64,000 bases of DNA, from contig JBKHVI010000008.1 in the NCBI GenBank assembly GCA_046570105.1, positions 1-64,000 on the forward strand. Reading direction: 5' to 3'. How positions within the stretch are numbered: position 1 is the first letter of the stretch; every line of letters starts with the position of its first letter. Position numbers and translations under genes: made by a program. Origin of the DNA: Bacteriovoracia bacterium (GTDB lineage: Bacteria > Bdellovibrionota > Bacteriovoracia > Bacteriovoracales > Bacteriovoracaceae). This document shows, piece after piece, positions 17,227 to 21,646 of this stretch. The notes under the pieces were generated by a model that saw nothing but the letters and a program-made list of their open reading frames with translations, did no database searches and was not told the origin of the DNA.

Positions 17227-17844
17227 CTACTGAGGTGCCACGACCAGTTTAACGGCACGCACCACATCTTTCCATTCAGCACGTTGAGTATAGTCGGCAT
17301 GGGCAAACGAGTAATAAATCTTGCTGTCTTTACCCACTACAAAGGTGGCCGGCAAAGGCAGAATATTGGTGGAAAGATTGAGCCCCAGGGCCTTGTATTC
17401 TTCAAGGACTTTAGCATCGACTTGAAAGGCGATGCCTAAGAGCCTGGCGGCATCATTGGTTGGGTCTGATACGAGATCAAAACTTAGACTATTTTTTTGC
17501 TTGGTTTTCTTCACTTCTAAAGCTGGATCCGGACTGATCGCAACAATCTGTGCGCCCTTAACACTTTTAAGATCCGCCTGAATTTCTTTGAGCTGCTTCA
17601 TGCAGTATGGGCACCAACTTCCGCGATAAAAAGTCACAATAAGTGGACCCGTCTTAAGCCATTCACTGACTTTCTTCTCACCTAATTTTATGTCGGGAAC
17701 ACTCTCACCGACTCGTGGAGCGCGTTCAGCAATTTTCGTTTCTTTGAGCTTTTGAGTGGCATCAGCAAAGAGTTTTTTGCGCTCTTCTGGAGTCATGCTG
17801 TGAGCTGTAAATGAGATACAAAGAAGTAGTAAAAACCAACGCAT
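17227..17844 (-). CDS. AhpC/TSA peroxiredoxin-like protein, secreted
   Basis: FYRGSWCPYC, AISPD, PLPATFVV. Confidence 0.9.
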   Translation of the reverse strand: MRWFLLLLCISFTAHSMTPEERKKLFADATQKLKETKIAERAPRVGESVPDIKLGEKKVSEWLKTGPLIVTFYRGSWCPYCMKQLKEIQADLKSVKGAQIVAISPDPALEVKKTKQKNSLSFDLVSDPTNDAARLLGIAFQVDAKVLEEYKALGLNLSTNILPLPATFVVGKDSKIYYSFAHADYTQRAEWKDVVRAVKLVVAPQ

Positions 17845-18138
17845 AAAACCTCCTAAAGCGGGTCAATGTCTGAAGCCCCAGTATTGTGACGTAAATCCCA
17901 GGGGGTGGCGATGAAAATGGGCGACCTAAGTGCCATAAGCCTCGCTAAACTTCGTTGAGGGGGGTGAGCTAAGCTATCAAGATTAGGCGGCTAATTGATA
18001 TTGCGGCTTCCCCCCTCAAGGCGGGCCTAGAATCTAGCTATCAAGAAACAGAGTGATGGATTCTTGCAGCACGTTCGTTCTTTAGAATCCACCCCCAACC
18101 TCGGCCGGCTATTTGAGCTCGCCACGGAGGAATGGGTT

Positions 18139-18360
18139 ATGAAGGAATATTTTTGGCGTCGCGGTTTGTTTTTCTTGGGATGTTTTATTTATCTGAATGC
18201 GTGTCAGGCACCCAATGTCCACGCAATCGATGAAGAAGAAAAAGACATCCCCAGTTTCACTCGTGAAGAGCTGTTAGCTGGTGGCGGTGAACGCAGTTTT
18301 GAAACTTATGCAGTGGCCGTTCAGGAAGAACACCGCGAGAAAATCCTTCACGAAGAGTAA
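18139..18360 (+). CDS. Small probable lipoprotein
   Basis: GGAGG RBS, LNAC lipobox-like, followed by a terminator. Confidence 0.65.
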   Translation: MKEYFWRRGLFFLGCFIYLNACQAPNVHAIDEEEKDIPSFTREELLAGGGERSFETYAVAVQEEHREKILHEE

Positions 18361-18385
18361 ACTGGATTTTTTCGATCCTTAGACA

Positions 18386-18420
18386 GGGGGGAAGGGGCAC
18401 GGCGGCTCCTTCCCTTTTTT
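18386..18420 (+). terminator. Rho-independent terminator
   Basis: gggaaggggc/gctccttccc stem plus T-tract. Confidence 0.8.
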
Positions 18421-18421
18421 A

Positions 18422-18503
18422 TTAAGGTTCCAACACACTTATCAGTAAGCACCGCATACTATCAAGAGTTTAAGGTTCCAACACACTTATCAGTAAGCAC
18501 CGC
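18422..18503 (+). repeat. Two identical 34 bp direct repeats (REP-like copies 1 and 2)
   Basis: ttaaggttccaacacacttatcagtaagcaccgc at 18422-18455 and 18470-18503, 14 nt apart. Confidence 0.95.
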
Positions 18504-18768
18504 TTCTTTTAAACTGCGACGCGATCTCAAGCATTGGCGGCAGGGTTCGGGGCCATCGGAATTAATAATCCGTATTTAACGAACACTCAGGGGAATCGAA
18601 GGCCAGAAGCCCGGTGAGCGTAACGCCACAAACGACCGAGTTGAGAACTATTACGATAGAAGTTCATGAAAGTTTAAAAAAGCCAACCAAGTGTTCGCGA
18701 GAGTAACTGAACTTCACTCAGATAACTTAATTTACCTGGGTCGAATGAACACATGTAAAAGTAGTTTA

Positions 18769-18795
18769 TCTATCTAACAGGTGTGTTGAAACTTC
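18769..18795 (-). repeat. Degenerate inverted REP-like copy 3
   Basis: ctaacaggtgtgttgaaactt versus ctgacaagtgtgttggaacct of copy 5. Confidence 0.6.
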
Positions 18796-18815
18796 CCTAC
18801 TTGATCTTAAGCTCA

Positions 18816-19367
18816 TCACTGATGGCTTTCTAAGGATTCATACCATTCAAAGCCCAGAAACCCCTTTTGGGTTTTGAATATGACTTGCTGCCCTTCTTTT
18901 AGATCTGGATATCTATCAGTACAAAAGGCATCACCATCGATCGTTCTGCTAGCGCTTGATACCTTAGCTCGAAAGCACATAACTCCTTTTCCATCATTCC
19001 TTTCAAAGCCCTCACCTAAAACAATCGACTTTTCTATTTTCAAACTCGAATCAAATTTAGAATTTATGAACGACAGAAGATAAAGATTCAGAAAAAAAGA
19101 AATTAATACAAATATACCGTATGCTGAAAAAGTATCTTTCGCTTTCAATGATGTGGAGGCACGTCTATTAACGACATAAGCGATAAAAAGATAAGGTAAA
19201 CTCAACAACAAACTAAAGATACTTACAGGGATTAAATCTAAAATCTGTCCTTTCGCATCTTGAGCAAAACCGATCGATAATAAAACGCCAAACAATATGA
19301 ATAAAAAAACTTCAGCGTTCCATCTCTTTCGAAGAAAAGAGTCATCTTTTTTCATTTTAACATTCAT
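18816..19367 (-). CDS. AT-rich hypothetical membrane protein between repeat copies
   Basis: Three TM segments; G-rich RBS before ATG 19367; visibly more AT-rich than the flanks. Confidence 0.75.
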   Translation of the reverse strand: MNVKMKKDDSFLRKRWNAEVFLFILFGVLLSIGFAQDAKGQILDLIPVSIFSLLLSLPYLFIAYVVNRRASTSLKAKDTFSAYGIFVLISFFLNLYLLSFINSKFDSSLKIEKSIVLGEGFERNDGKGVMCFRAKVSSASRTIDGDAFCTDRYPDLKEGQQVIFKTQKGFLGFEWYESLESHQ

Positions 19368-19390
19368 TTGTTTACCCCCTCTCCAAAAAT

Positions 19391-19415
19391 GTTCCAACAC
19401 ACTTATCAGCAAGCA
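19391..19415 (+). repeat. REP-like copy 4
   Basis: gttccaacacacttatcagcaagca, 24/25 identical to copies 1 and 2. Confidence 0.9.
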
Positions 19416-19456
19416 ATGCGAAACCATAAGTAATTATCTATTAAATGATTAACGAA

Positions 19457-20110
19457 TCAACTTAATACAACCTTAGGAACAATCGGTTTTCCAGTGGTGC
19501 GATCCTTCTCATAGGAAAAGATCGTTTTTTGTAGTCCGGTCTTAATGCTCTTAGATTCTAATTGAGAGAAGGATTGATTAATCCATTCTAACTCTCTTCG
19601 ATCTATACCTTGCTCTAAGGTAAAATACGCTAAAACACGCTCCAACTGAAACGACATGCGAGAATCAATCTTATTTTTAAAATGTAGACTACTATAGGGA
19701 TAAGTTTCAGCTCTCGTAACCATTTTGGCTTCGACAGGATTACGATAGATGTACTTGTATACATTCATAAGATACTCATAACTGTCGATCAGTGAGCCCT
19801 TGTACCTACCACCAAATATTTTGTTAATCCTCTTCGATCGCTTTTGAATATCTAATGTCACTCCTTTCATAAAGAAATACATCAGGCGATCGATGTCGAG
19901 ATTGGGCGTTAAAACTAAAAGATGGAAGTGATTGCTCATCAGGACAAAGGCAGCAATCCGAATTCCATGTTCTTTTTGTAGCCACTCAAGTCTGGAGTTC
20001 ATCACCTCCCAAACTTCATCCAACGAGAGGAAGAAATACTCGCGATTATTTGATCGCGCCGTGATGTGGTAATAGTGATCTCGTGATCTTTCGACGGCCT
20101 TTCTTGGCAT
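19457..20110 (-). mobile_element. REP-associated tyrosine (Y1 HUH) transposase, RAYT/TnpA-REP-like
   Basis: YHITARSNNR, VLMSNHFHLL (HUH), YIYRNPVEA (catalytic Tyr), YPYSS; flanked by inverted repeats. Confidence 0.9.
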
Positions 20111-20208
20111 AACGCACCTCTCCCAAGAGGGCTCTTATCAAAAATTGTTCTGTGGACGCAAACTCTGCCAATAGAAAAAGTTAGATATTTCAAATACGAA
20201 GCAAAGAA

Positions 20209-20245
20209 CCAACACACTGCTTACTGACAAGTGTGTTGGAACCTT
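20209..20245 (-). repeat. REP-like copy 5 (inverted) within a 10 bp hairpin
   Basis: tgcttactgacaagtgtgttggaacctt at 20218-20245; ccaacacact (20209-20218) pairs with agtgtgttgg (20230-20239). Confidence 0.9.
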
Positions 20246-20260
20246 CCTAAGATCCAGTTC

Positions 20261-21646
20261 ATGAAAAAAGCTCTCTGTTGGATAAGACGCGATCTGCGTT
20301 TGCACGATCATGCTGCCCTCTCGCAAGCTCTGCAAGAAAACGACGAGGTTCAACTCGTTTTTGTTTTCGATCCACTCATCTTAAATAAACTCTCCGACAA
20401 ACAAGATCGCCGTGTGACCTTTATCATGAAGTCATTGCAAGACATCGAGCGCACTCTGCAAAAGCGTGGCGCTTCGGTTCTTATTCGTTATGGCAATCCG
20501 GTGGAAGAAATTCCTAAACTCGCGCGTGAAATGGGAGTCACCGCGGTTTATGCCAATCGCGATTACGAACCTTACGCCAAAAAGCGCGATGAAGAAGTTC
20601 AAAAGCAACTAGCGAATCTGGATATCACTTTCAAGCAATATAAAGACTCCGTCATGTTTGAAGAACATGAAATTCGCAATGGCTCAGGACTGGTTTATAA
20701 AGTCTTTACTCCCTACAAAAATAAATGGCTGGAAGTTTTGCGCGCCCAAGATGAAGTCGTGCCGGACTATCGTATGAATTCCACCAAGATCGCAAAACTT
20801 GTGAACAAAAAAAATGTGCTGGATTTTGACTGGCATAAAGAAATTGGTTTTGTCGCGACTCCTGCTGTGCTCACGGGTGGAACGACCGAGGCGATGAAGC
20901 GTCTCAAACAATTTTCTATTCCCATGGCGCGCTATCATGAGACGCGCGATATTCCCGCGCTTGATGGAACATCGAATCTTTCGCCTTATATTCGTCATGG
21001 CTGTCTTTCGGTGCGCGATATGATTCGCGCAGGCCTCGAGCAGCGAAACGATGGTGCCAAGATTTGGCTCTCAGAAGTCATCTGGCGTGATTTTTACCAC
21101 ATGATTTTGGACACGCATCCTTATGTGGAAAAGTCCTCTTTCAAACCCGACTACGATCAAATCAAGTGGCGCGGAAAAGAAGAATGGTTTGTTGCTTGGT
21201 GCCAGGGCGAGACGGGCTACCCGATTGTCGATGCGGCCATGCGCTGCTTGAACCAAACTGGCATGATGCACAATCGTCTGCGCATGGTGGTGGCAAGCTT
21301 TCTGTGCAAAACACTTTTGATTGATTGGCGTCAGGGTGAGCGCTATTTCGCGGAAAAACTCTTAGATTTTGACTTGGCGGCCAACAGTGGTGGCTGGCAG
21401 TGGAGCTCGAGCACCGGTTGTGACGCTCAACCCTACTTTCGAATTTTTAATCCCTATAACCAATCAGAGAAGTTTGATAGCGACGGTGAGTTCATCAAAG
21501 CTTGGATTCCTGAGCTAGGTCATTTAGACAAAAGTGATATTCACTCACCCACGCCCATGCTTGCCCCCGATTATCCACGGCCGATCGTGATTTATGAAAA
21601 GATGCGTGGAGAAGCTCTCGATATGTACGGCGTGGTGAAAAAATAG
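20261..21646 (+). CDS. phrB: Deoxyribodipyrimidine photolyase
   Basis: WIRRDLRLHDH, TSNLSPY, WRDFY, MHNRLRMVVASFL, GGWQW. Confidence 0.95.
   Translation: MKKALCWIRRDLRLHDHAALSQALQENDEVQLVFVFDPLILNKLSDKQDRRVTFIMKSLQDIERTLQKRGASVLIRYGNPVEEIPKLAREMGVTAVYANRDYEPYAKKRDEEVQKQLANLDITFKQYKDSVMFEEHEIRNGSGLVYKVFTPYKNKWLEVLRAQDEVVPDYRMNSTKIAKLVNKKNVLDFDWHKEIGFVATPAVLTGGTTEAMKRLKQFSIPMARYHETRDIPALDGTSNLSPYIRHGCLSVRDMIRAGLEQRNDGAKIWLSEVIWRDFYHMILDTHPYVEKSSFKPDYDQIKWRGKEEWFVAWCQGETGYPIVDAAMRCLNQTGMMHNRLRMVVASFLCKTLLIDWRQGERYFAEKLLDFDLAANSGGWQWSSSTGCDAQPYFRIFNPYNQSEKFDSDGEFIKAWIPELGHLDKSDIHSPTPMLAPDYPRPIVIYEKMRGEALDMYGVVKK

Follow-up and report, generated by a model that had tools for sequence, protein, structure and literature searches.

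The locus described here lies in a 64,000-nt stretch of DNA (the window; G000:C8:1-64000 in our numbering) at the start of contig JBKHVI010000008.1 of a Bacteriovoracaceae assembly (GCA_046570105.1; G000) of 3.0 Mb and 88% completeness. The family is predatory in lifestyle, as this host is likely to be. Between a small conserved open reading frame (ORF; 18064-18360) with its terminator on the left and the photolyase gene phrB (ATG at 20261) on the right sits an island in which five copies of a repeat delimit a RAYT-like HUH transposase gene, an orphan gene and a 265-nt interval. The island is a TIRtron/REPtron-like element with REPIN-like doublets (TIR, terminal inverted repeat; REP, repetitive extragenic palindrome), not an IS200/IS605 element or an integron, and the DNA between its repeats differs from strain to strain. 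A terminator-like hairpin and T-run (18386-18420, plus strand; GC stem, fold -21.6 kcal/mol) marks the left edge of the variable site, and the same hairpin is kept in seven of the nine genus genomes carrying phrB. A preliminary description of this DNA correctly had the island start right after this terminator and wrongly took the small conserved ORF for prx. It also called the island visibly AT-rich: GC is indeed lower (0.385 versus 0.446 +/- 0.024), a moderate difference that is due to the orphan (0.35) and transposase (0.39) genes, the 265-nt interval standing at 0.446.

The transposase gene (19457-20110, minus strand) encodes a class-2 Y1/HUH enzyme of RAYT/TIRYT-like type, 217 aa long, with H61-F-H63, Y120-x3-NP and a conserved serine tail. 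The Y1 assignment, made earlier from HFH and YIYRNP, is borne out by a match to PF01797 (E=1.8e-7) and by the motifs NHFH and YIYRNP. In an alignment of 31 sequences (A5: the window protein, 29 of the at least 120 homologs listed, and a paralog on contig C1), H61, H63, Y120, N124 and P125 are invariant, as is S140; all 31 match the model NF047646 (REP_Tyr_transpos), and six of them match the IS200 model. The predicted structure (pLDDT 88) finds its best fold match in TnpA-REP of E. coli (4ER8, E=7.6e-8, 16% identity), followed by IS200/IS608 enzymes. A C-terminal helix-turn-helix (HTH) gave no Pfam match, and the structural model has two short helices at 169-193 without a separate match of their own. 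The enzyme resembles subclass 2.1 of Quentin 2018 (PMC6006769) in NH[YF]H, YxxxNP and a serine-containing tail, and differs in that the TIRYTs of that subclass have a C-terminal HTH. Judged by NHFH, YxxxNP and the serine tail, it probably belongs in class 2, nearest to subclass 2.1, though the HTH was not found. Homologs are present in 27 of 61 genomes searched.

Alignment places the five repeats where the preliminary description had them, in the order +,+,-,+,-. Over 34 nt, those at 18422 and 18470 do not differ; the copy at 19386-19419 is 82% identical, that at 20218-20245 (minus strand) is 96% complementary over 28 nt, and a degenerate copy at 18774-18792 (minus strand) reaches 79% over 19 nt. 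The repeat type is AAGGT-N~9-ACTT with an inner AAGC-NNN-GC, 29 bp long; the unit is laid out as R|GTTCCARCACACTT-N6-AAGC-NNN-GC, and paired units have the central GC-NNN-GC in common, lie 7 nt from each other or have a transposase gene between them. By sequence comparison, R1 (18424-18455, plus strand) is one arm with a 3-nt loop and GC, and R2 (18472-18505, plus strand) extends 4 nt into a second arm. The 14-nt piece between them, earlier read as a captured spacer, is the decayed start of a second arm (18454-18471, plus strand; 12/18 positions match the expected arm), and R1 together with this stretch is missing from the allele of strain run X6, where 50 nt are skipped. R3 (18774-18795, minus strand) is degenerate and shortened, with 81% identity to R5 over 26 nt. 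R4 (19388-19419, plus strand) forms the downstream end of the transposase unit, and R5 (20200-20245, minus strand), whose second arm (20200-20218) is internally deleted, ends 15 nt before the phrB ATG. No GTAG/GTGG foot occurs at R1, R2, R4 or R5, and the neighborhood of R3 has one GTAG and one CTAC; the motif GGGGWSAS is absent from all five copies.

The repeats form a small family across the genome. A strict pattern (19 positions, at most three mismatches), from which all copy counts are taken, gives 18 matches in the 3.0-Mb genome versus 0-3 in 12 controls. Sixteen are clear copies, four of them in the island (R3 falls below the pattern's threshold) and 12 as arms at seven other G000 loci; two matches, on C5 and C24, are lone and at chance level. 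The claim that the repeat has no other copies is right for the 64-kb window, where the strict pattern finds no further clear one, and fails at genome scale. The seven loci comprise full inverted doublets on C15 (twice), C54, C61 and C104, a truncated doublet on C46 and a single arm on C121. Doublets are 55-70 nt long, and the full ones fold at -15 to -29 kcal/mol (100-116-nt windows), so the weak hairpin noted earlier is a property of the lone arm (-1.0 kcal/mol) and not of the doublet. Hairpin-forming doublets in extragenic DNA are also found in the genomes G002, G003, G004, G007 and G230. The reading of the repeats as non-canonical one-offs finds no support; they make ordinary REPIN-like doublets and fit the TIRtron/TIRYT idea (PMC3733652). 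A looser pattern was restricted to viewing junctions, because its 32 matches compare with 14-31 in controls. Many single or spaced arms terminate at GC|, which equals the C|T step of a fused doublet, and these end points suggest a candidate cut site of the enzyme. A second dispersed palindrome of AAGGT...ACTT build was seen in 11 copies on C15, C16, C26, C54, C76 and C121; on the last of these, an 865-bp contig, three copies and one island-repeat arm surround a 95-aa ORF.

Among 25 homologous loci, 17 have an inverted repeat pair within 900 bp on both sides of the transposase gene, most of them AGGT-N~9-(A/C)CTT by eye (two loci at contig ends, six distant ones and four additional metagenome loci were left out of the survey). 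A tree of 32 relatives collected in this analysis, without named reference sequences, places the window protein in a supported six-row clade (95/84) made up of loci with the island repeat; the sister sequence, L013, has a variant of the same length. The repeats belong with the enzyme family, the island repeat being found at the sites of the closest homologs and related repeats at more distant ones. Close homologs occupy four other sites (two in G007, 87-92% identical to each other, and those in G004 and L145), and one of the two G007 copies is without a catalytic histidine. The C1 paralog is not flanked by the island repeat. Upstream of the second Y1 paralog are three tandem 277-bp repeats, 78% alike, that occur nowhere else in the genome (L002 2130-2960; G000:C1:126138-126959).

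The core unit R4-transposase-R5 measures ~860 bp. Between the direct repeats R1 and R4, the window strain carries a further ~970 bp made up of a partly duplicated doublet, a clipped copy of an RNA motif, a palindrome, a decayed repeat and the orphan gene. We compared strains by aligning six of 22 listed runs to the window, contigs in every case, and inferred absence in contig runs solely where one contig bridges the missing part. Run X1 is possibly the window's own source and was not treated as independent; the RNA runs X19 and X20 contain only 0.05 of the window words. A 27.7-kb contig of X9 passes from the terminator (18420) through 20 other letters, which repeat the arm's first bases, into the first base of R4 (19391), leaving the bare unit. 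In X6, a 32.3-kb contig has one repeat (R1 is missing), the RNA motif minus 127 nt, 586 other letters in place of 18718-19424, and then the transposase. In two contigs of X2, the tail of the transposase gene is linked to a repeat. Of the phrB-carrying congeners, G002, G005, G006 and G010 have an empty site. The proposal that DNA between the repeats is gained and lost is upheld by this comparison of what had been called the prx-phrB interval, in the X9, X6 and X2 alleles and in the genus sites. The last 60 nt before R4 (19470-19411) score 0.93 to a copy at another site (L082) and 0.54 to one at the same site (L081), and the window allele is therefore a mosaic. (L082 and L084 are nearly identical to G007 loci and are not tallied separately.)

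The orphan ORF (18816-19358, minus strand) would encode ~180 aa with hydrophobic stretches. It occupies the R3-R4 gap almost completely, leaving only 20-30 nt at each end, is co-oriented downstream of the transposase, and has a purine-rich stretch resembling a ribosome-binding site just outside R4. Its depth is zero or trace in contigs of X2, X3, X6, X7 and X9. Only the orphan itself was found among 5.8e9 proteins of near length, and there was no PADLOC match and no significant Pfam or NCBIfam match; a feature score of 0.96 to unnamed clusters of 171-186 aa is a weak match by the tool's own note.

At three of 18 paired loci, the repeat pair encloses passenger genes: a membrane ORF and DUF6973 in G004, TumE and HVO_A0114 in G028, and a 140-aa ORF in G001. 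One C15 doublet has a 70-bp direct duplication around it when compared with the empty G007 site, and short tandem stubs (flank plus GTTC(C)) stand at the outer ends of repeats on C15, C54, X9, L062, L127 and L128. On G007:C475 (L127 297-4140), four near-identical doublets separate a 183-aa ORF, a 714-codon mid-gene Rhs piece and a 215-nt open NHL piece. A single 2721-aa Rhs-type frame in G000 contains the regions homologous to the two pieces, at residues 2012-2550 and 1527-1588; from these positions, their order is reversed in the array. Next to the array are a large serine recombinase and 56 bp that match the transfer-messenger RNA end region of G000:C85 exactly.

The 265-nt interval is not featureless and holds a conserved element. 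Positions 18511-18717 (plus strand) are a 5'-clipped copy of a predicted structured RNA that we call motif A; the R2 tail stands in place of the 5' strand of its closing helix, and the copy also lacks the upstream promoter-like signal. An 88% copy lies at G000:C39:14329-14571, behind a methylase-type gene in an integrase-bearing island, with no repeat nearby. Motif A is ~220 nt long and multi-copy, with copies that often occur two or more together, spaced by a few kb, near accessory genes (e.g., L157-L186), with flanking genes that vary between loci. A sequence-only model built from 10 copies, whose E-values are rough, recovers it from 58 of 150 genomes of the family, each with up to 15 scored copies, and from 30 of 150 genomes of the phylum, including 22 of 127 outside the family. 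Among 10 pattern matches in viral contigs, two are convincing homologs (phage loci L149 and L156).

From an alignment of 37 copies we derived a structure of 37 pairs in which a helix closes the 5' and 3' ends, two loops pair with each other and a second pseudoknot forms. In this structure 92.7% of cells are paired and 27 pairs are changed on both sides, versus 76% for shuffles and 23-39% for slid alignments, figures that are inflated because the structure came from the same alignment. Folded singly, copies do not outperform shuffles (z=0.59, 1.48), and RNAalifold recovers only 8-10 pairs; support for motif A is therefore the covariation. By eye, many copies have a sigma-70-like -10 box ~7 nt before them and a T-rich run after their end. 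Rfam 15 gave no match at E<=5 over 17800-20400, and on 12 motif A loci gave a tRNA elsewhere and four weak matches far below gathering scores, none over the motif core. We rejected motif A as coding DNA, there being no common open frame, and as a partner of the transposase family, since no homolog was found among ORFs at 30 loci and the repeat pattern was absent around 34 loci. In the window copy, five of the six pairings checked are intact and the sixth, as indexed, has two of four; the copy is a clipped passenger, since its closing helix lacks the 5' strand. Our literature searches, judged by title and the start of the abstract, returned nothing relevant on this RNA. The candidate merits study in its own right.

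These observations are probably best explained by a TIRtron-type element whose enzyme would nick and rejoin single-stranded DNA (ssDNA) at or near its repeats, sometimes carrying neighboring DNA along. Close to its repeat, TnpA-REP cuts ssDNA at several positions and joins the ends (PMC3333891, PMC8266576), and a published model has REP units excised and amplified in tandem, sequestering genes or pieces of genes at their flanks (PMC3333891). By analogy with TnpA-REP, the window protein would bind the repeat in ssDNA and cut at more than one site (PMC3333891, PMC8266576); a 5'-phosphotyrosine would form on Y120 and the ends would be rejoined. An excised doublet with some of its flank might then re-enter at or beside an existing repeat, which would yield tandem stubs, flank duplications, tandem arms and repeat-bounded cargo, while host recombination between repeats and between transposase copies could produce losses and mosaics. 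Capture would on this account be a by-product of repeat mobility and not the work of a dedicated cassette system. With a defined enzyme, a 29-bp repeat, alleles with and without cargo, and junction footprints that predict the cut positions at hand, this capture model is directly testable. If it is true, predatory bacteria could use this route to shuffle pieces of Rhs genes and small accessory genes.

Several results weigh against this explanation. The window protein scores 67.5 bits against NF047646, under the 80-bit cutoff, and eight of the 25 homologous loci have no repeat pair within 900 bp (one, L012, has a pair farther out). Most G000 doublets lie between ordinary genes, without cargo. 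No repeat-like motif was found within 200 bp at any of 34 motif A loci (the same pattern has no matches in 60 kb of control flank either), which means that motif A is not cargo of a regular kind. The G007:C475 array is known from one assembly, and the X2 joints have short sides, of only 36 and 66 nt, with unread letters between. Two of the three filled genus sites (G001 and G003) contain unrelated genes with no trace of the island repeat, and the G007 site has a GDSL-type gene behind a mere 8-nt repeat stub, without a transposase.

Some of these results agree with an explanation that we consider unlikely but to which we give appreciable weight, in which the repeats merely mark a hot spot for accessory DNA and the enzyme moves repeats, not cargo. 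Doublets and units would insert where they are tolerated, as behind a terminator, foreign DNA would come in by other routes, and recombination or slippage between 30-55 bp repeats would generate the alleles. The sites filled without repeats, and the four empty ones, speak for it. Loss of the DNA between direct repeats could account for the X9 and X2 alleles, copies of motif A are scattered independently through other contexts, and the mosaic tail points to homologous recombination. On C46 (L008 3004-3058), G000 has a truncated doublet where G007:C62:3279-5434 has 2.1 kb and no full repeat. However, the reversed order of the Rhs pieces between doublets does not follow readily from insertion and deletion, nor do the 70-bp flank duplication and the stubs recurring at the outer ends of repeats, and the close fit of the orphan in the R3-R4 gap also tells against it.

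Quite improbable, in our judgment, is a dedicated capture platform, in which the HUH enzyme would add and remove repeat-tagged cassettes in order, expressed from the transposase side, as a single-strand integron. The transposase does stay beside phrB (in the window, L081, L083, X2, X6 and X9) while the DNA on its far side changes, the orphan is compact and shares the transposase's orientation, and G007:C475 resembles an array of units in the same orientation. Against this, alleles hold one or two pieces with no shared order, the repeats face both ways, the RNA motif is clipped, the Rhs pieces begin inside a gene, the unit has itself changed sites, and cassette promoters are at chance level (5 found, 5.0 expected). 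Integrons have a tyrosine recombinase, IntI, and attC sites in one orientation between cassettes. The window locus is like them in having variable, compact, promoter-less-looking cargo beside a recombinase-like gene, with repeats between the pieces; it differs in its HUH enzyme, mixed repeat orientation, fragment cargo and absence of an attC/attI build. The integron-like architecture suggested earlier was not borne out, since no IntI was found among the scanned island or flanking ORFs, there is no shared ordered array, and insertions at the same site also occur without repeats.

That the repeats are ordinary ends of an IS200/IS605 element or remnant, which would have refuted the preliminary description, is extremely improbable: the Pfam Y1_Tnp match and a fold in common with IS200/IS608 enzymes speak for it, but the enzyme has YxxxNP and not YxxxQ, is 217 aa long and scores 15 bits against the IS200 model (cutoff 55), no tnpB adjoins, the genome has only two homologs, 42% identical, the best plasmid matches are at most 36% identical, and the ends are long inverted repeats that also form doublets.

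Among known systems, the closest likeness is to the TIRtron/TIRYT (PMC3733652), in which a RAYT-like Y1 enzyme likewise lies between inverted repeats unrelated to GTAG REPs and the repeats are a family of modest size, dispersed as singles and dimers. GGGGWSAS, absent from the island repeats, is present in some TIRs only, and cargo turnover is seen directly at the window locus, unlike in the account given there; the main text does not mention the host family, and the supplements may list members of the phylum. REPIN/RAYT systems (PMC3116915, PMC5581495, bioRxiv 10.1101/2021.07.10.451892) share extragenic inverted doublets, long hairpins and a cognate Y1 enzyme that is also flanked. They have hundreds of arms per genome, whereas the window genome has ~17, barely palindromic and without the GTAG/GTGG foot (PMC3116915, PMC5581495). 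Their groups 2 and 3 have a single-copy gene at one conserved site, whereas the gene for the window enzyme is at different sites in congeners and twice in G007; such mobility is nearer to the IS-like Group 1 RAYTs, which those papers (PMC3116915, PMC5581495) do not link to REPINs. The E. coli REPtron, TnpA-REP with its bacterial interspersed mosaic elements (PMC3333891, PMC8266576), supplies the best structural match, has repeat numbers that vary on one side of the gene, and is lost or replaced in relatives (PMC3333891); its repeat is different, and its gene is fixed at one locus in E. coli, unlike the window gene (PMC3333891). Both ends of the window element are the same inverted repeat, which sets it apart from IS91/ISCR and Helitrons. 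Those are rolling-circle elements with unlike ori and ter ends. They are named as HUH enzymes carrying neighboring DNA in PMC3333891. A literature search on RAYT in Bdellovibrio, judged by title and the start of the abstract, returned nothing relevant.

The element is of a known, little-studied kind, and what is new is a variant with good comparative evidence for cargo turnover and a candidate RNA. The locus bears on the role of RAYT-like enzymes without classical REPs. We would offer only tentatively, as a doubtful extension, the wider idea that a Bdellovibrionota HUH family runs ssDNA capture and shuffling of orphans, toxin-antitoxin pairs, Rhs pieces and a structured-RNA gene into arrays, as a generator of diversity that resembles an integron but has no tyrosine recombinase, its cargo revealing an undescribed, multi-copy, doubly pseudoknotted 220-nt RNA across the phylum.

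At the right edge of the island, R5 may provide a -35 element for phrB: within window positions 20224-20263, R5 itself contains a -35-like hexamer, and 7 nt ahead of the phrB ATG there is a -10-like one, with a scan score at chance level. At empty sites the native phrB promoter region has a -10-like box 5-7 nt before the ATG; this region is replaced in the window, where the two hexamers could restore a promoter. A G007 stretch just upstream of phrB was considered as a repeat remnant and dropped, as empty sites carry similar letters as native promoter region.

Motif A is followed in the window by a ~50-bp palindrome, module B (18719-18771, no strand assigned), which is inverted at C39 (G000:C39:14560-14602) and also stands alone in G007 between Rhs-locus genes (L044 1500-1549; L040). 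The C39 island adjoining intact motif A (L003 1292-8005) encodes a tyrosine integrase, an excisionase-like HTH protein, an XRE-type regulator and a 1133-aa methylase/specificity fusion. The 2.1-kb segment of G007:C62 has two secreted-looking genes, one of them M35 peptidase-like. In G002 (C154; L136 4982-10433), a low-GC block of 5.3 kb lies between doublets and encodes an SMC/AAA ATPase, TCAD9 and NERD nuclease proteins and one uncharacterized protein; the block is defense-like, with weak PADLOC matches only.

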